From the sequence record NC_054905.1: 64,000 nucleotides of DNA; one strand, written 5' to 3'. Every line of letters begins with the position of its first letter. The stretch's first letter is position 1. Below, in pieces: positions 37,188 to 46,306 of this stretch. Position numbers and translations under genes: made by a program. Source of the stretch: Enterobacteria phage Kha5h. The notes beneath the pieces were generated by a model. It was given only the letters and a program-made list of their open reading frames with translations. It was not told the origin of the DNA and ran no database searches.

Positions 37188-37508
37188 TTATAGCGTAATC
37201 CATTCTCGTACTATCTGAGTTACTACACGTTCATGGGGCTCGACTAGTTCAACAGTCGGAACTGCATAATACCAGTCAGAATGATAAGAACCTGACCGAG
37301 ATTCATTTACCGCTACATGTACATTATGTTTTGGACTAAAGTAAACACACTGACGATATTGACATTTACCATCTTGCACCCAGTCTTCTATTTCGACAGG
37401 TTTAAGATAATCGGAAAAATCGAAATCATAGTTTTCCGAAAATGCATCATGGTCTTCAATGATTTCGCTCAGAACTGCATCAACATCTAATTTATTTTCA
37501 ATAGTCAT
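37188..37508 (-). CDS. hypothetical protein
   Basis: Track ORF 106 aa. Confidence 0.45.
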   Translation of the reverse strand: MTIENKLDVDAVLSEIIEDHDAFSENYDFDFSDYLKPVEIEDWVQDGKCQYRQCVYFSPKHNVHVAVNESRSGSYHSDWYYAVPTVELVEPHERVVTQIVREWITL

Positions 37509-38413: not shown

Positions 38414-38803
38414 TTAATCCAAAATATTATTAGGCATTGGTTGAACACTCACAAGTTCTTTAAAGAACTCAGTAGAGTCAGGCAATTTAACCATTTCCGG
38501 AGCATGCTTACTGAATTTATGTTTACATTGACGGCATTTATATTCAAGCTCTGGTTTACGCCAGTTAATCAACTGAACTTGTTCAGTACCGCATTCAGGG
38601 CAATTAGGAACGTTTTTAGAAGCTCTTTCACGTCGTTCAACCATAGCCATAATAGCATCCCATGCTGGAGGTTTAAAATCTAAATCGTCGCAGCCGTGAA
38701 TCTTTCCACGCATTTCCATATCATCTTCCTCACCAGCCATAATAATTTTAATTAAACTGGAATTACTTGAAGCTGCAATGTCTTCTAATAAACGCTTTTT
38801 CAT
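38414..38803 (-). CDS. zinc-ribbon protein
   Basis: 129 aa; CPECG...CRQC. Confidence 0.5.
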
Positions 38804-39729
38804 TTCAATACCTCAATAGCATTACGTAAACCATTTGCTTTTGCATTAAGAGCTTTTAACAATTTGGTGTGTTCTGTAATTTGGGCTTCAACTTCAATCA
38901 AACGGGCATTGAGATATTCACGTTCTTCACTCAGATTATCAACCTTTTCTACTTTAGGTTCTTTTACAACTGTCTTATATGTATTAGGGTTCTTCAGTTT
39001 AATTAGAATGCGTGAACTGTATAACATTGAACCATTATCTTCGGTTTCGTCATACATTTCCACTACGTCCATAATTTTTAACATCATGCGGAGTTTATAA
39101 GACAACGAACGAATAGTTTTGTTGTGCTTATTAATTTCTTTAGCTGTCATGGTGCCAAGATTACGTGAGTAATAATAAGGAACCTGGATATTAATTAATA
39201 CTGATGAACCACCTGGCTTGTGTGTTACTTCATCAGCAATAACCCAGTCCTTAACATGAACTGTATTTGTACGGTCATCGCCCGCGGTAAATAGTTTGCG
39301 AGCATGCTTAAAAAGCATATTCACTTGGTCATTGAATTGACAAGCAAATTTATCAGCAAATTTAGTTTCAGGAATGGTAGAAAACCAATCAGCCAAATGA
39401 GTCTTTTTAACATCATTAACAATAGTAAATTCAACCAAATCGGTTATAGATGTCTCAGATTTAATGAAGCTCGGCTTCATAAAGTTTTTAATGTTCTCAT
39501 GAGCTACAGTAGAAGATAACATACGAGAACGTTTAAACCATTCAAGCAAATTGCCTAACGAATGAGAATAAGCGTTTTGAGTATCTTTACAGATATGATT
39601 TTCCTGACCAACATATTGAAGGAAATCACGAAGAATATTATTGATTACTGCTCTGTGCCCGATCTGATAATTACGGTGTTTAGTAATAAGACTGTCAAAA
39701 TAATCAATATAATGTTTACGAGTTTTCAT
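38800..39729 (-). CDS. coiled-coil-tailed protein, paralog family member 1
   Basis: 309 aa; C-terminal heptad-repeat region. Confidence 0.55.
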   Translation of the reverse strand: MKTRKHYIDYFDSLITKHRNYQIGHRAVINNILRDFLQYVGQENHICKDTQNAYSHSLGNLLEWFKRSRMLSSTVAHENIKNFMKPSFIKSETSITDLVEFTIVNDVKKTHLADWFSTIPETKFADKFACQFNDQVNMLFKHARKLFTAGDDRTNTVHVKDWVIADEVTHKPGGSSVLINIQVPYYYSRNLGTMTAKEINKHNKTIRSLSYKLRMMLKIMDVVEMYDETEDNGSMLYSSRILIKLKNPNTYKTVVKEPKVEKVDNLSEEREYLNARLIEVEAQITEHTKLLKALNAKANGLRNAIEVLK

Positions 39730-39781
39730 ATTCTTCTCACTTGGTTAATGGTTTATACTCCGAGCCATCCTTGGCTTTAAA

Positions 39782-40783
39782 TTACTTAATTAACTGTAAA
39801 GCTTGTTCAAGACGATCAAGACGATTAACGGATTCTTCCCAAATCTTTTTAGCCTGCTCATATTCTTTCTGCGCTTTATTAGAAATTTCTAGAACTTCTT
39901 TATAAGCTTTTTCTAATGCAATAACTTCTGGACGAATTTCTACCGGTTCAGGTGAATCATCAAGACATTCCATTAGTTCCTCAAGGGTAGTTTCTTCTTT
40001 AGGAGTATTCACAATTTCATCACATTTTTGTTGGTAAATTTCTTTACTAGTAGGTGAATAAGCACATTTCACTTCACGAAGACTAATTACAATTTTATAT
40101 CCTTCCCATCCGCATATATTCTTAAAAGGATATGTATGAATATTTTCTACTGTTTCCATACAAAGTAATGCAGTCTCTAACTGACGAGTTATAGTGCTAG
40201 CAATTGAGAAAAATTTATTAATATTCTTTTGGTTAGCGTTTGGTGTAAAAAATCCATAATTCACAAAAATAGCTACTTTATTTTCATCAAGCTCATATTC
40301 TTTTACGATAATCATATCAGAAGCCAAAGGATGAATTTGACGATAATCGCCATAACATAATTTAGAAGCTGATTTTAGAATTTGTCCTTTGAAAAGTCTG
40401 AAATTACTAATCCAACGACGAGTAAAAATATTCTCAGGGTCTTCTTTATTATTAAGATGATAAGAATTAACATCACCGAACCAATTATATCCTACTACAT
40501 CTTTAGTTCGTTTAATTTCTTTCCCAAAATTACCAAGAATATCCCGATTAACCAAATATGAAAGAAGACGAGACTCTTTAAAGGTTTTCTTGATAACATC
40601 TTTATCTACACGGCTAGAAATTTTACGAATTTCATGAATAAATTTAGCAGAAGAAACAATACTTGCATCAACACTATTGAGCCATTGGTTGATAATAGAA
40701 AGAACGCTATTTTGGCCAAACATCGGTATAGCTTTATCATCAATAACGCTATTGAATGATTTGATATATTCGTTACGAGTCAT
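39782..40783 (-). CDS. coiled-coil-tailed protein, paralog family member 2 (333 aa from MTRNEY)
   Basis: SD GAGGAG 7 nt before ATG at 40783; early promoter 40812-40841 lies inside the longer track ORF. Confidence 0.55.
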   Translation of the reverse strand: MTRNEYIKSFNSVIDDKAIPMFGQNSVLSIINQWLNSVDASIVSSAKFIHEIRKISSRVDKDVIKKTFKESRLLSYLVNRDILGNFGKEIKRTKDVVGYNWFGDVNSYHLNNKEDPENIFTRRWISNFRLFKGQILKSASKLCYGDYRQIHPLASDMIIVKEYELDENKVAIFVNYGFFTPNANQKNINKFFSIASTITRQLETALLCMETVENIHTYPFKNICGWEGYKIVISLREVKCAYSPTSKEIYQQKCDEIVNTPKEETTLEELMECLDDSPEPVEIRPEVIALEKAYKEVLEISNKAQKEYEQAKKIWEESVNRLDRLEQALQLIK

Positions 40784-40811
40784 AATAATCTCCTCAGTAG
40801 AAAGTAAGAAC

Positions 40812-40841
40812 ATTATACCACATCCTTGTGGCAATGTAAAC
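40812..40841 (-). promoter_or_regulatory. early promoter (GTTTAC-N18-TATAAT)
   Basis: Upstream of coiled-coil paralog 2; -35 overlaps stop of paralog 3. Confidence 0.6.
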
Positions 40842-41845
40842 TAGTTCAGTGCATTTAGTGCATTGTTCAGTTTAGAACGTTGCTTCGTAAGATTTTTGAC
40901 TTTTTCTTGAGCTTTTTCCAGCATCTTTTCAGCTTCTAACACTTCATTAGTTGCTTTAACGAGTTCATCATCTACTGCCTTGATAGACTTCTCAATCGCA
41001 TCCGTGTGCCATTTTTCAACAGGTTTAAGACTCGGATTTTCAACAGGAAGAAAATTCACTTTATTGAATTTCCATGCATCATTATTACCTGAACTATACA
41101 TCCAAAATTTAGGATCGTTTGATGAGTAATTAGTTTGGGGTTCAGGTTTTTTCTCTTGTGTAACTTCGTCCTTTCTCAAAAAATCATATTTAAATGAAAC
41201 GATCATATCAAGTTCATATGTTGTCGTATCTAATTTAAATCGTTCGAAATGCTGCGAAATCTTAGACTGAACAGCAGCAACAACATCCATATACTTAAAT
41301 GCTTCTGTCAACTGTGATTTAAGGCATTCACAAATTGAAAGAGAATTTTTAGTATTAGGCTTAAAGCTAATTCGCGCAGTTCTATTATTTTCCTTTAATG
41401 GTCTTACTTCCATCTGAAGAGTATAACCATCAAATTTAAGATTCTTTAAGTTAATATCAGAGCCTTTTAATCGACTAGCAGTAGACAAAATTTGCTTTAA
41501 TTGTCTACGGAACAGAGCAATAAATCTCCATTCAATACGATAATGATTTGGATTGAAAAATCCAGATGATAAATCGACCTTACTTTGACCAACGCCTTGA
41601 ACAAATAGAGGATTTTTATAATCAATAGTTTTACAGAAATCGGTGAGCTGCTCACGAGCAGTCATTTGTGTAATATATCCAGCTTTATCAAAATGACGTA
41701 ACCATTCACTGCTATTCATATACTTAAAGTGAATATCACGATTAACTTTATCAGGGTCTAAATTATTTTGGCACAAAAATGTCATAACATCACGAGTATA
41801 GCTGGCATTACGAACCATATCTTCAATTTGAGAACGAGTTTTCAT
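40841..41845 (-). CDS. coiled-coil-tailed protein, paralog family member 3
   Basis: 334 aa; C-terminal coiled coil. Confidence 0.55.
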   Translation of the reverse strand: MKTRSQIEDMVRNASYTRDVMTFLCQNNLDPDKVNRDIHFKYMNSSEWLRHFDKAGYITQMTAREQLTDFCKTIDYKNPLFVQGVGQSKVDLSSGFFNPNHYRIEWRFIALFRRQLKQILSTASRLKGSDINLKNLKFDGYTLQMEVRPLKENNRTARISFKPNTKNSLSICECLKSQLTEAFKYMDVVAAVQSKISQHFERFKLDTTTYELDMIVSFKYDFLRKDEVTQEKKPEPQTNYSSNDPKFWMYSSGNNDAWKFNKVNFLPVENPSLKPVEKWHTDAIEKSIKAVDDELVKATNEVLEAEKMLEKAQEKVKNLTKQRSKLNNALNALN

Positions 41846-41853
41846 AGTGTTCC

Positions 41854-42765
41854 TTAAGATTTAAGTAAATCAACAATTTTAATTAATTTTTCACGCTCGG
41901 ATTTAGCTTTACTACTCAGTCCAGATAGTCTGAAAATTTCATCATCATATTGCTGAATAGAAATATTCAGCTCTTCAATCTGCTTATTAAAATAATCAAT
42001 TTGTTCAGAATGTTTTTCGTTACTACGAACTGGTACAGGTTTTGTAGGTAATTTAGATGAACTGGATTCATCCGGGCGATAAATTAAAATACAACTTGAA
42101 CCAATCGGGCATTTAGCACCAGACGAATATTCTAATGTTCCAGCTTCTTTTAAAACTTCAAAAGCTAAACAGAGATGATGCCCCATATTAACATAATCTG
42201 TAGAGCGAGCTCTGATGTAATAATCATCTCCGCGAATACTAAATTTAAAGCATTTAAGGTCTTCTGTATTATTGGTCTTAAAAATCATTTGTTTATCTAG
42301 ACCTTTAGCTAATCGAGCGCCTAATGCTAATAATCGTCGTTGATTTTCCCACAAATCCGCAATCATTTGGTCAAATGATAATTTCGGCATTAGTCGACCA
42401 TAAAGGTCGTATCCTTTATTATAATTACGAAGGATTTCACTCGCATTAATACGAGACAACGCTCCAATTTTATTAAGGGCTTTCATAATACGATTAGATA
42501 AACTCATTCCAGACCCGTTTGTTCGCTGTAAATGTTTTTCTAATCCAAATCCAATATCAACTTTAAATTTATCTAAAATTTCAGCATGAACATCTTTATC
42601 AATAACATTCAAATCCAAAGTTGGGTTAAATCTATGAAAAAATTTATCTGGCTCTCCACGACGAAGTACAGTCCATTCATTCATCATTTTCTTATTAACT
42701 AAAGATTTAATTACTGCATTGACATTATTAATTACTACTGACATATTTTCCTCACTCAATTTCAA
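41854..42765 (-). CDS. coiled-coil-tailed protein, paralog family member 4
   Basis: 303 aa; C-terminal coiled coil. Confidence 0.55.
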   Translation of the reverse strand: MKLSEENMSVVINNVNAVIKSLVNKKMMNEWTVLRRGEPDKFFHRFNPTLDLNVIDKDVHAEILDKFKVDIGFGLEKHLQRTNGSGMSLSNRIMKALNKIGALSRINASEILRNYNKGYDLYGRLMPKLSFDQMIADLWENQRRLLALGARLAKGLDKQMIFKTNNTEDLKCFKFSIRGDDYYIRARSTDYVNMGHHLCLAFEVLKEAGTLEYSSGAKCPIGSSCILIYRPDESSSSKLPTKPVPVRSNEKHSEQIDYFNKQIEELNISIQQYDDEIFRLSGLSSKAKSEREKLIKIVDLLKS

Positions 42766-43214: not shown

Positions 43215-43742
43215 TTATGCGAGTACCGTCTTTAACCGTTCTTCAAACTTCCGAAGAGTATTTTGGCGTTCAGCTCTTTGCTTTTTGTAAGTTTCAATAC
43301 GCTCTGAAATGAGAGTGTATCGTTCATTTACTGATTCTTTCATAAAATCAGGAATTTCACGAGAAGCTTTAATCTCGTCAAATTTATCAATAACAGCTTG
43401 CTCTTCAGCAATTAAGTTATCATACATCAAAATATCTTTCTTGATGAACTCAATATCTTCTTGAGTTACACGAGATAATTTAGATGCTTTATCCTTTTTG
43501 TACTGTTCGTTAGTATCACGAGACCAGTGTAATGTACGATTTTTATTCGTATTCTTGTAAATTTCTACAATACCGATCTCGTCAATAATAACGATCCAAT
43601 TCCAACGGGATTTGTAAATTTGTCCTCCATCAACAGTGATTTCACCTCCAATTGAGATGTCATTAAAGAACTTGCTTTGTGCTTCTGATTTAAATTTACC
43701 ATCGTTGTAATTTACCAGGTTGAAAATATCTTTAGCGTTCAT
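43215..43742 (-). CDS. hypothetical protein with C-terminal coiled coil (175 aa from MNAKDIF)
   Basis: SD GGAGG before ATG at 43742; the track ORF's N-terminus translates the conserved promoter leader. Confidence 0.5.
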   Translation of the reverse strand: MNAKDIFNLVNYNDGKFKSEAQSKFFNDISIGGEITVDGGQIYKSRWNWIVIIDEIGIVEIYKNTNKNRTLHWSRDTNEQYKKDKASKLSRVTQEDIEFIKKDILMYDNLIAEEQAVIDKFDEIKASREIPDFMKESVNERYTLISERIETYKKQRAERQNTLRKFEERLKTVLA

Positions 43743-44206: not shown

Positions 44207-45187
44207 TTATTTCAGAAGAGTAACCTCAGCAATTTCTTCCCAACCGTTTTTGTCGGTCATAATAAAGTCAGCAAGATAAAGTGCAGTACGCAGTGAAACA
44301 TTGCGTAAACGATTAACATTGACTTTCATCCATGATAATGCTTTATAAGTTTCTTCATCAGAAAGACCGCGCTTTTGCATCATGTCAGTTGAAAGAATAA
44401 CATCTTCAACCCTGACCATAATTTCTTCATTAGTGTGAACACCCAAATCTAAATAAACTGAGCGGGAAACTAATGCTTGTAAATGTGGAGCAAGTTTAGT
44501 ACCACGGTCTAATTCGCGGTCAATGTCAACGTTTGTGATAAAAACAATCGTTCCTTTAAATTCAAACTCACGCTCAATGCCTTTTTCTTCTAAGTAAGAA
44601 GATGCAGTGCTCCAGCAGACTTTACGGGTCTCTCCAGTGTCCAGAGCAGCTTTCAAAAGATTAAGAATGTCCATATCAGAGAAAACATCCACATCATCAA
44701 TCAAAAGGACAGAATTCTCTTCACGATTATTCCAGAGCTGTTCATAAAGACCGATACCAGAGATTTTACCGTTAATGCTTTTATATTCAATGTATCCAAT
44801 ATCATTTGCTTTATTTAAAGCTTTATCTAAAGAATACGTTTTACCAATGCCTGCCGCACCAGAGATAATTAATGAACGAATGTTTCCGTTAATAATACCA
44901 TTCGTCATCATTCCCATAACATTAAATCTTTTATTAATGCGGGTTTTCATATCTTCATATGATTCTTTAACTTCTTCAACTTTTACACCATCATATGAAA
45001 TGTCTGATTTGTAAACCCAAACACCGCGACGCTTACCGTCAATTTCAACAAAAACTTTACCATCTCCTTGTGCATCCACCGGAGCATTATCTGGGAACCA
45101 TTCACCTAAGAGCTCAAAAGTTCCAGAGATTTCTTTACCGAAGTAGATACCCTTATTGATAGTTACAGTTTTCATTTTATTCTCCAA
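44207..45187 (-). CDS. AAA+/P-loop ATPase
   Basis: 326 aa; Walker A GAAGIGKT, Walker B LLIDDVD, sensor-like FITN. Confidence 0.6.
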   Translation of the reverse strand: MENKMKTVTINKGIYFGKEISGTFELLGEWFPDNAPVDAQGDGKVFVEIDGKRRGVWVYKSDISYDGVKVEEVKESYEDMKTRINKRFNVMGMMTNGIINGNIRSLIISGAAGIGKTYSLDKALNKANDIGYIEYKSINGKISGIGLYEQLWNNREENSVLLIDDVDVFSDMDILNLLKAALDTGETRKVCWSTASSYLEEKGIEREFEFKGTIVFITNVDIDRELDRGTKLAPHLQALVSRSVYLDLGVHTNEEIMVRVEDVILSTDMMQKRGLSDEETYKALSWMKVNVNRLRNVSLRTALYLADFIMTDKNGWEEIAEVTLLK

Positions 45188-45209
45188 ATCCGTATCAGTT
45201 GATAGTTGT

Positions 45210-45239
45210 ATAGTACCATAAAGCTTTATGCCTGTAAAC
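45210..45239 (-). promoter_or_regulatory. early promoter with conserved 22-bp element (AAA+ ATPase gene)
   Basis: GTTTAC-N18-TACTAT; element at 45198-45219. Confidence 0.6.
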
Positions 45240-45272
45240 CGTTTTGTGAAAAATTTTTGAAATAAAAAAAAA

Positions 45273-45290
45273 GGGAGCCCGAAGGCTCCC
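45273..45290 (-). terminator. tetraloop hairpin after the nucleotidyltransferase gene
   Basis: GGGAGCC-CGAA-GGCTCCC, preceded by A-tract. Confidence 0.6.
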
Positions 45291-45292
45291 TA

Positions 45293-46306
45293 TCATTTAT
45301 AATAACTTCGGTGGTTTTCAAGATAGACCTTCTCAAGGAAGTCATCCCAGAAACTCATGTCTACTGTTTTAGGCATACCGTTCTTAGAAGCTTCAGTAGA
45401 TGCTGCTTCTACTTGATCGACCACATCTTCCAAAAACTCTTGAACTGTTTTAAATGGATGTTTACCCAACTTCACGTCGAGAATAAATGGAGCATCTTGA
45501 AGTGGATAGACTAAGTCACCAGTTTTGTAAATTTCCAATAGTTGGAGTCCACCACGACAAGCATGACTCAAAGCTTTCCAGTCAATACCTTCATTGGCTT
45601 CGGCCTTACGAGCACGTTCACCATATTCAGCATCTAATTTGTTCAGTGACTGCTTAAGCTCAATAAGAGAAAGCGTTGTCTGATATTTACGACCCAACAC
45701 AGTGTAGAACGTTTGTGGGCCTGTTTTCTCATGATTATGGAACACCCATTCACAGAATTCGTTTTCTGGAAGACGATGCTTAATATCTTCAACTTTAGTG
45801 CGACGCTGCTTAATAGAACCATCTTCTTGGTAATCAATCCACTGCTCAGGGATTTGATTAACTACTTTCAATACATCACGTAATGCAGCCAAACGAGAAC
45901 CTTTGACACCGTATTTAGAAGCTTGCTTGCGGACATATCCTAAATATGATTTCATGTTAGTCGTATAAAAACGAGAACGGTTGTCTTGAATAAACTTCCA
46001 CACATCAGGCAAATCAGATTTAACCACTAGTTCAGGTGGAGTGTGAAGCATATCTAATGCTACGGTTTCACCATCTGCTGCTAATTTAAAGAAATATTTA
46101 AGACTGTATAGTTCATGGTCAATATCATCTTTAGTGTTTTTAGATGATGTGTTGTTAGTGTTTTTACTCATATGCTCTTTAACATTTCCGATAAGAATAT
46201 CGCGAGCAGGAGGAACAAAGATTTCTTTAAAATCTACATCAGATTCTGGAGTAGAAGTTCCATAAAGATGACTACCAAAATAGCTTTTCATTACTGTTTT
46301 CATCAT
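45293..46306 (-). CDS. nucleotidyltransferase-fold protein (Pol-beta superfamily)
   Basis: 337 aa; FGSHLYG-x8-SDVDF matches GS...DxD motif; hairpin terminator downstream. Confidence 0.6.
   Translation of the reverse strand: MMKTVMKSYFGSHLYGTSTPESDVDFKEIFVPPARDILIGNVKEHMSKNTNNTSSKNTKDDIDHELYSLKYFFKLAADGETVALDMLHTPPELVVKSDLPDVWKFIQDNRSRFYTTNMKSYLGYVRKQASKYGVKGSRLAALRDVLKVVNQIPEQWIDYQEDGSIKQRRTKVEDIKHRLPENEFCEWVFHNHEKTGPQTFYTVLGRKYQTTLSLIELKQSLNKLDAEYGERARKAEANEGIDWKALSHACRGGLQLLEIYKTGDLVYPLQDAPFILDVKLGKHPFKTVQEFLEDVVDQVEAASTEASKNGMPKTVDMSFWDDFLEKVYLENHRSYYK

Follow-up and report, generated by a model that had tools for sequence, protein, structure and literature searches.

We analysed a stretch of 64,000 nucleotides (nt) from Enterobacteria phage Kha5h (sequence record NC_054905.1; hereafter, the window), a Tequatrovirus (T4-like) genome in which four consecutive minus-strand genes form a tandem array. 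They are called nrdC.3, nrdC.4, nrdC.5 and nrdC.6 here, the names nrdC.3-nrdC.8 being taken from an annotated relative, phage KMB22. The four genes descend by ancient duplication from a single gene, of which several other T4-like genera have one copy. Although the locus is known from a model phage and one of its members had already been characterised functionally, its four orphan-like genes, spread over three database families, are newly merged here into a single phage-restricted superfamily that grew out of a single-copy ancestor. As to function, we lean, with modest conviction, towards an expanded, early and dispensable counter-defence family, in which NrdC.5 would neutralise the bacterial defence protein Dsr1 and its paralogues would act on other immune proteins.

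Homology and predicted fold of the four proteins

The sequences of the four proteins are highly divergent. In pairwise BLASTP comparisons, nrdC.3 and nrdC.4 share 25% identity over 226 amino acids (aa; E=1.6e-5), and no other pair among the four is significant. Profile-profile comparison by hhalign was carried out with one clade alignment per gene, assembled from database homologues and related loci (A, nrdC.3; B, nrdC.4; C, nrdC.5; D, nrdC.6). The A-B pair gave P=9.4e-16 (98.6% probability) and the B-C pair P=2e-7 (93.7%; 179 columns, globular domain), with weaker links for A-C (P=1.5e-3) and C-D (P=2.5e-3). After removal of the last 60 residues the corresponding values were 9.7e-16 for A-B, 3.6e-7 for B-C and 1.1e-3 for C-D; since they hold without the tails, the similarity does not come from the helical C-termini. 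The B-D comparison is weak (P=0.05), and by sequence neither B-D nor A-D has a significant direct link. The clades of the superfamily are thus joined by significant links either directly or through a chain, nrdC.4 and nrdC.6 being connected by the Foldseek comparison described below. One further match, from a hidden Markov model (HMM) of the nrdC.5 family to nrdC.3 (E=4e-8), was rejected as an artefact: the alignment contained a natural nrdC.5-nrdC.3 chimera (P0057, see below), and the match was gone once P0057 was removed.

Both hhalign and MAFFT align three collinear motifs in all four proteins, and it is these globular-domain motifs that are best conserved between the paralogues. Motif 1 reads F-x-K-x-x-x-L-S...L-x-x-F-x-K, and motif 3 forms a helix with the pattern L-x-x-A-L-x-x-M-x-x-V. 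Motif 2 is the basic block that an earlier note on this DNA, made from the sequence alone, had regarded as shared; it is real, and the nrdC.4 and nrdC.5 versions are aligned column for column by hhalign (Table 1).

In the databases the four genes are divided. NrdC.5 matches PF23882 (DUF7235) over its full length (1-334; 388 bits against a gathering threshold of 30 bits, E=3.4e-116), and the same model gives no match with nrdC.3, nrdC.4 or nrdC.6. nrdC.3 (E=6.5e-116) and nrdC.4 (E=6.9e-169) belong to phrog_1435, and nrdC.6 to phrog_2257 (E=5.4e-152); the homologues of nrdC.4 all have a precomputed PF26897 (Phage_T4_Y04OP) assignment and those of nrdC.6 all carry PF26899 (Phage_T4_Y05B). The window proteins are full-length members of PF26897 (NrdC.3/NrdC.4), PF26899 (NrdC.6) and PHROGs 1435, 2351 and 2257, where nrdC.3 and nrdC.4 are already grouped together. 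Pfam and PHROGs thus hold three separate families of unknown function, whereas profile-profile and structure comparison unite them here in a single superfamily. Searches of the window proteins against Pfam, NCBIfam and PDB sequences revealed no functional domain, and a profile search of the PDB sequences returned nothing relevant to the family. In the searchable literature we found nothing on the three Pfam families, nor on a link of NrdC.5 to nrdC.3, nrdC.4 or nrdC.6.

The predicted structures extend these relationships. The AlphaFold model of nrdC.4 has a mean predicted local distance difference test score (pLDDT) of 83.4 and consists of a globular part (residues 1-235), a low-confidence linker and a single helix (285-332). 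The order of its elements up to residue ~235 is a helical N-terminal part, three beta strands, a helix pair, two strands, a long helix and two more strands; the helix pair (119-130 and 132-142) is the basic block. In the nrdC.6 model (pLDDT 77) the elements follow one another in the same order, and two helices, 246-272 and 278-295, form the C-terminal end. When the nrdC.4 model was compared with BFVD by Foldseek, 18 proteins were matched at E<=1e-3, two of them short fragments of nrdC.4 itself. The named ones among the rest come from T4-like phages of Escherichia, Yersinia, Klebsiella, Enterobacter, Pectobacterium, Erwinia, Serratia and Acinetobacter; they are uncharacterised and nearly all 280-370 aa long. 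They include NrdC.6 of phage JS10 (E=7.8e-5). Moreover, the nrdC.4 and nrdC.6 models have eight BFVD matches in common at E ~1e-3 or better, all of them uncharacterised T4-like phage proteins of 300-370 aa. The JS10 match and the eight common matches establish the link between nrdC.4 and nrdC.6 that is weak by sequence alone; the same fold is predicted for these two proteins, the ones that were modelled.

These results decide against another explanation, namely that the four genes are unrelated orphans alike only in their helical, low-complexity C-termini. Such an explanation would agree with the significance of BLASTP for the A-B pair alone, with the division of the genes into three families by Pfam and PHROGs, and with the failure of tail-only HMMs to cross-detect the paralogues. 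It is refuted, and we give it practically no credence, because the profile similarity sits in the globular domain and persists without the tails, the three motifs are collinear in all paralogues, the models of nrdC.4 and nrdC.6 agree in the order of their elements and share structural neighbours, and the superfamily profile finds single-copy homologues at the same genomic position in other genera. The proposal of the earlier note that these are true, very divergent tandem paralogues is therefore borne out by hhalign and by the shared BFVD matches, with significant mutual similarity outside the helices for A-B and B-C.

The C-terminal part fared differently, as the same note had described it as a constant coiled-coil module. 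Long helices are predicted at the C-termini of nrdC.4 and nrdC.6. Heptads were assessed by a simple, crude scan of a/d occupancy with shuffling; the occupancy is 0.9 in nrdC.3 (p=0.04) and 1.0 in nrdC.5 (p=0.003), and it is not significant in nrdC.4 (0.8, p=0.31), in nrdC.6 or in nrdC.8. Signs of a coiled coil are thus a heptad pattern in nrdC.3 and nrdC.5 and predicted long terminal helices in nrdC.4 and nrdC.6. Many members of the family end alike, for example in QR-x-K-L-x-x-A-[IL]-x-x-L-K, and among tail-only hhalign comparisons A-C is the sole notable pair (8e-5). Within orthologue groups the tails are strongly conserved (block conservation 0.95-0.99; ratio of non-synonymous to synonymous substitution rates, dN/dS, 0.01-0.17). 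The idea of a tail constant in sequence had to be abandoned: leave-one-clade-out HMMs of the last 32 residues never recover the tail of the omitted clade, and the tail is consequently a common architecture conserved within each orthologue group.

Distribution, copy number and divergence

A search of 1.84 billion representative proteins with the superfamily profile returned 29 at E<=1e-3, of which several are fragments and one (P0248, 597 aa) is a false positive with a repeat protein; the informative matches are all ~280-365 aa long and have the same terminal helix. Scans of viral contigs returned only close T4-like relatives, and members from Acinetobacter phages were reached by structure and weakly by sequence. 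The family is confined to T4-like phages. In the related loci the gene is situated between nrdC.10 and nrdC, as in the window, and in Pectobacterium phage PM2 it directly adjoins the nrdC.2 homologue.

The number of copies varies between genera from one to four. A single copy is found in PM2 (Mosugukvirus), Klebsiella phage KP1 (Jiaodavirus), Enterobacter phage CIP9 (Kanagawavirus) and Yersinia phage fHe-Yen9-01 (Tegunavirus). There are three copies in JS09 (Mosigvirus; types D, C and A) and in four coliphage genomes of 170-172 kb (L010, L017, L018 and L024; types D, C and B), one of which, L018, matches vB_EcoM_VR20, labelled Dhakavirus by UniRef. T4 and the window (Tequatrovirus) have four. 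At the DNA level no repeats were detected among the paralogues except for the start ATG-AAA-ACT-CGT (M-K-T-R) common to nrdC.3 and nrdC.5, which indicates that the duplications are old.

Members of the array are also lost, and in the laboratory the family is dispensable. A study of genome reduction in T4 lists nrdC.1-6 among the large fragments that can be removed (PMC9825161), and natural genomes exist with a frameshifted nrdC.5, a deleted nrdC.4 and an nrdC.5-nrdC.3 fusion. The fusion protein P0057 is encoded in two natural Tequatrovirus genomes (L029, 3570-4900; L030, 1931-3261) and occurs on at least four contigs. There, a frameshift in nrdC.5 leaves an N-terminal fragment of 115 aa, the middle part of nrdC.5 is joined in frame to residues 127-309 of nrdC.3, and nrdC.4 is gone; nrdC.5 and nrdC.3 meet at a short stretch, FN-x-VN, in which they resemble each other. 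A second composite protein, P0238, is an open reading frame (ORF) of 173 aa on a metagenome contig of 803 bp (L028, 1-803) and combines an unrelated N-terminus of 118 aa with an exact NrdC.5 tail. The first 479 nt of this contig are without a match in phage records. P0238 may stem from a swapped module or from chimeric assembly, and it was not used as evidence.

Divergence is far more rapid in the array than in the genes beside it. Within Tequatrovirus the flanking genes are 98-100% identical, compared with 94-98% for nrdC.6, 91-97% for nrdC.4 and 86-91% for nrdC.5, and nrdC.3 occurs as two alleles that are 60% identical. Against JS09, identity is 24-75% for the three array members that have a counterpart there, 78-84% for nrdC.8, nrdC.10 and nrdC.11, and 99% for nrdD. 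The nrdC.3 of the window is 60% identical to T4 NrdC.3 and 75% to that of JS09, and it is a mosaic: its ends are T4-like, with residues 1-60 being 90-100% identical to T4, whereas the centre (~80-260) is 30-65% identical to T4 and 80-90% to Mosigvirus JS09. This suggests that a central cassette has been exchanged between genera.

The earlier note had taken the diversified paralogues for a family under diversifying selection, which the substitution rates do not bear out. Whole-gene dN/dS is 0.15-0.36 for nrdC.3, nrdC.4 and nrdC.5 and 0.03-0.14 for nrdC.6, i.e. raised relative to the conserved flanking genes (0-0.09), yet it never exceeds 1. Constraint is strong in the core (residues 61-180) of nrdC.5 and nrdC.6 (0.05-0.06); the first 60 residues and residues 181-280 are looser, with regional means of at most 0.39 and a top pairwise value of 0.56. 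As dN/dS stays below 1 throughout, positive selection, or an arms race, is not demonstrated, and the pattern is one of relaxed or fast evolution together with allele exchange.

NrdC.5, Dsr1 and a proposed counter-defence role

The functional evidence comes from T4. A T4 clone with compensatory deletions no longer plates on E. coli ECOR17 (Srikant, Guegler & Laub, eLife 2022, PMC9391042). Deletion of dsr1 from the host lets the clone plate again, dsr1 on a plasmid protects MG1655 against it, and plasmid-borne T4 nrdC.5 rescues its plating on cells carrying Dsr1 (PMC9391042). According to a 2026 preprint, Dsr1 combines a SIR2 NADase effector with a tetratricopeptide repeat (TPR) sensor that is triggered by the phage major capsid protein, and this sensor is common to Avs7 and ~9,000 other defence proteins (PMC12803255). 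The nrdC.5 gene of the window is the orthologue of T4 nrdC.5 (PF23882): the proteins are 90.9% identical over 331 aa, and the gene has the same genomic position, with nrdC.4 and nrdC.6 as neighbours, as in T4. The rescue phenotype belongs to the T4 allele (PMC9391042), from which the window allele differs at ~9% of residues, mostly within 1-60 and 181-280. The suggestion made beforehand that the array encodes anti-defence proteins is therefore right for nrdC.5, given the plasmid rescue with the T4 gene and a window copy that is 91% identical, and plausible for nrdC.3, nrdC.4 and nrdC.6; since nrdC.5 disarms Dsr1 and the other three are its paralogues, they are good counter-defence candidates.

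From these results, a mechanism may be proposed. The four proteins appear to share one architecture, in which a basic globular domain of alpha/beta type (~230 residues) is connected through a poorly ordered linker to a long amphipathic C-terminal helix; this helix probably drives self-association. Promoters such as that at 40840-40812 would drive their early synthesis, and the basic globular domain would bind a host immune protein before the late structural proteins accumulate. Most likely, NrdC.5 binds Dsr1 directly and blocks either the sensing of the capsid protein or the activation of the NADase, and the paralogues may be copies retargeted against other immune proteins or other variants of Dsr1. 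The proposed logic is the same as that of DSAD1, which binds the sensor region of the SIR2 NADase DSR2 (PMC10973363, PMC11087589): a phage protein blocks a SIR2-type, NAD-depleting defence set off by a structural protein of the virion. The likeness is one of analogy only, with no kinship of sequence or fold claimed. DSAD1 targets DSR2, which senses the tail tube, whereas NrdC.5 would target Dsr1, whose TPR sensor responds to the capsid protein, and the published evidence for T4 NrdC.5 is a genetic phenotype. Among T4 proteins, gp49.2 (anti-OLD), TifA, Dmd, AdfA and IPIII are likewise encoded by early, dispensable, clustered and variable host-range genes in hyperplastic regions; those, however, are single genes of unrelated sequence, whereas nrdC.3-nrdC.6 represent one fold expanded to a tandem array of three to four members.

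Several observations weigh against this proposal. The effect of NrdC.5 on Dsr1 could be indirect, and NrdC.5 is placed in the family through profile comparison of sequences. nrdC.4 and nrdC.6 have a weak heptad pattern, and dN/dS above 1 was seen for no whole gene or region (no site models were applied). In the literature we found no paper on nrdC.3, nrdC.4 or nrdC.6 and, apart from the eLife paper of 2022, nothing on how NrdC.5 works or on a new name for it. In addition, basic globular domains (isoelectric point, pI, ~9.3 for A, C and D) also fit the binding of nucleic acids.

The last point leads to a different explanation, in which the family comprises early nucleic-acid-binding proteins, dimeric via the C-terminal helix, that act in host takeover or in the regulation of phage or host transcripts. 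The effect of NrdC.5 on Dsr1 would then be indirect, e.g. through an altered timing or amount of the trigger or of NAD metabolism. The globular domains are basic in all four proteins (pI 9.3 in nrdC.3, nrdC.5 and nrdC.6; 8.4 in nrdC.4), motif 2 is a conserved pair of helices rich in Arg and Lys, and the genes are early, judging from the promoter upstream of nrdC.4, all of which is compatible with such a role, as is a very weak resemblance of nrdC.3 residues 30-86 to the N-terminal region of XerD (E=0.003-0.013, far below the cut-off). The domain searches, however, found no nucleic-acid-binding domain, and we regard this explanation as unlikely. More improbable still is that the globular domain is a structural decoy that mimics a virion protein and occupies the immune sensors before the late proteins appear.

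We return, then, to direct counter-defence, which in its widest form can be put forward only tentatively and with more doubt than confidence. Coliphages may have expanded a single-copy gene into three to four oligomeric sensor blockers, each tuned to a different one of the many immune proteins with a TPR sensor of the Dsr1/Avs7 type or to other defence sensors. In that case nrdC.3, nrdC.4 and nrdC.6 would be anti-defence genes still to be discovered, and specificity would be determined by the mosaic central cassette of nrdC.3, which phage genera exchange.

Gene organisation, neighbouring genes and significance

The 5.5 kb around the array are 97.5% identical at the nt level to Shigella phage Sf23 and to many Tequatrovirus records. 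The array is on the minus strand, with nrdC (thioredoxin) on one side and nrdC.10 and nrdC.11 on the other. The four ORFs are consecutive as had been noted, except that the start of nrdC.6 was moved: we place it at ATG 42744, because the homologues and the T4 annotation begin there, and the TTG at 42765 is most likely too far upstream. nrdC.4 is directly preceded by an early-type promoter and then a GAGGA ribosome-binding site, an arrangement that argues for ATG 40783 as its start over an upstream TTG or ATG. A terminator-like hairpin is present within the spacer of this promoter, right behind the nrdC.5 stop codon; an Rfam search of the region found no RNA family.

Table 1. Positions in the window of the array genes, their parts and adjoining features.
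Feature	Position	Strand	Basis or remark
nrdC.3 (paralogue A), 309 aa	38800..39729	-	ORF; named nrdC.3 in KMB22; phrog_1435
nrdC.4 (paralogue B), 333 aa from ATG 40783	39782..40783	-	ORF; phrog_1435
nrdC.5 (paralogue C), 334 aa	40841..41845	-	ORF; PF23882 (DUF7235); orthologue of T4 NrdC.5
nrdC.6 (paralogue D), 296 aa from ATG 42744	41854..42744	-	phrog_2257; AlphaFold model
nrdC.8, 175 aa (context only)	43215..43742	-	PF26901 (Phage_T4_Y05D)
Early-type promoter directly upstream of nrdC.4	40812..40840	-	gTTTACA-17-TGgTATAAT; 11/12 consensus, extended -10
Terminator-like hairpin	40816-40833	-	
Basic block (motif 2) of nrdC.5, residues ~97-118, WRFIALFRRQLKQILSTASRLK	41492..41557	-	hhalign column for column, MAFFT
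Basic block (motif 2) of nrdC.4, residues ~122-142	40358-40420	-	Aligned with the nrdC.5 block
Long C-terminal helix of nrdC.4, residues 285-332	39788..39931	-	AlphaFold
C-terminal tail of nrdC.3	38803-38952	-	Equivalent of the nrdC.4 helix; heptad scan
C-terminal tail of nrdC.5	40844-41023	-	Equivalent of the nrdC.4 helix; heptad scan
C-terminal tail of nrdC.6	41860-42009	-	Equivalent of the nrdC.4 helix; AlphaFold
nrdD, 605 aa	34281-36098	-	Single unbroken ORF
106-aa ORF	37188-37508	-	Gene 49.1-49.3 region
nrdC.2	38414-38803	-	Zinc-ribbon protein
nrdC.10, then nrdC.11	44207-46306	-	P-loop ATPase; RlaP-type nucleotidyltransferase

A fifth gene, nrdC.8, had been thought to end in a coiled coil as well. 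Besides its heptad test, which is not significant, it shows no significant profile similarity to the family (hhalign P>=0.03 against all four clades) and evolves slowly, being 84% identical to its JS09 counterpart; it was rejected as a member. Among the loci examined, nrdC.8 was found solely in phages with three or four array copies; in the genera with a single copy, the ~9 kb flanking nrdC.10 on each side yielded no nrdC.8.

The product of a gene neighbouring the array, gp49.2, inhibits OLD in T6 (PMC13096335), and pin, annotated as an inhibitor of the host Lon protease, is also near, so that the neighbourhood is rich in host-interaction genes. In the 49.1-49.3 region, the 106-aa ORF of the window has a counterpart of the same length in a related genome that carries PF26835 (Phage_T4_Y04K), and in T4 the matching sequence is divided between two shorter ORFs. 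The nrdD gene, unbroken here, is split in the T4 record with a homing endonuclease between the pieces. KMB22 has a homing endonuclease gene between nrdC.9 and nrdC.10 (L001, 8789-9508) that is absent from the window. The zinc-ribbon gene nrdC.2 occurs as divergent alleles (100%, 78% and 61% identity) among otherwise near-identical phages, with allele boundaries set independently of those in nrdC.3. On the other side, homologues of the nrdC.10 ATPase are found in 1,310 records, including phages of Vibrio, Acinetobacter, Xanthomonas and Agrobacterium as well as jumbo phages, and its conservation is far above that of the adjoining array.

Through their kinship with nrdC.5, the orphan genes nrdC.3, nrdC.4 and nrdC.6 of the best-studied phage, T4, become specific and testable candidates, and a phage-restricted protein fold without a solved relative is defined. 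The array would also offer a clean example of how an anti-immune repertoire is built up, by tandem duplication, rapid divergence, exchange of alleles between genera and frequent loss. Inhibitors directed as a family against sensors of this kind would be of general interest, because the sensor domain of Dsr1 recurs, combined with different effectors, in thousands of defence proteins (PMC12803255).

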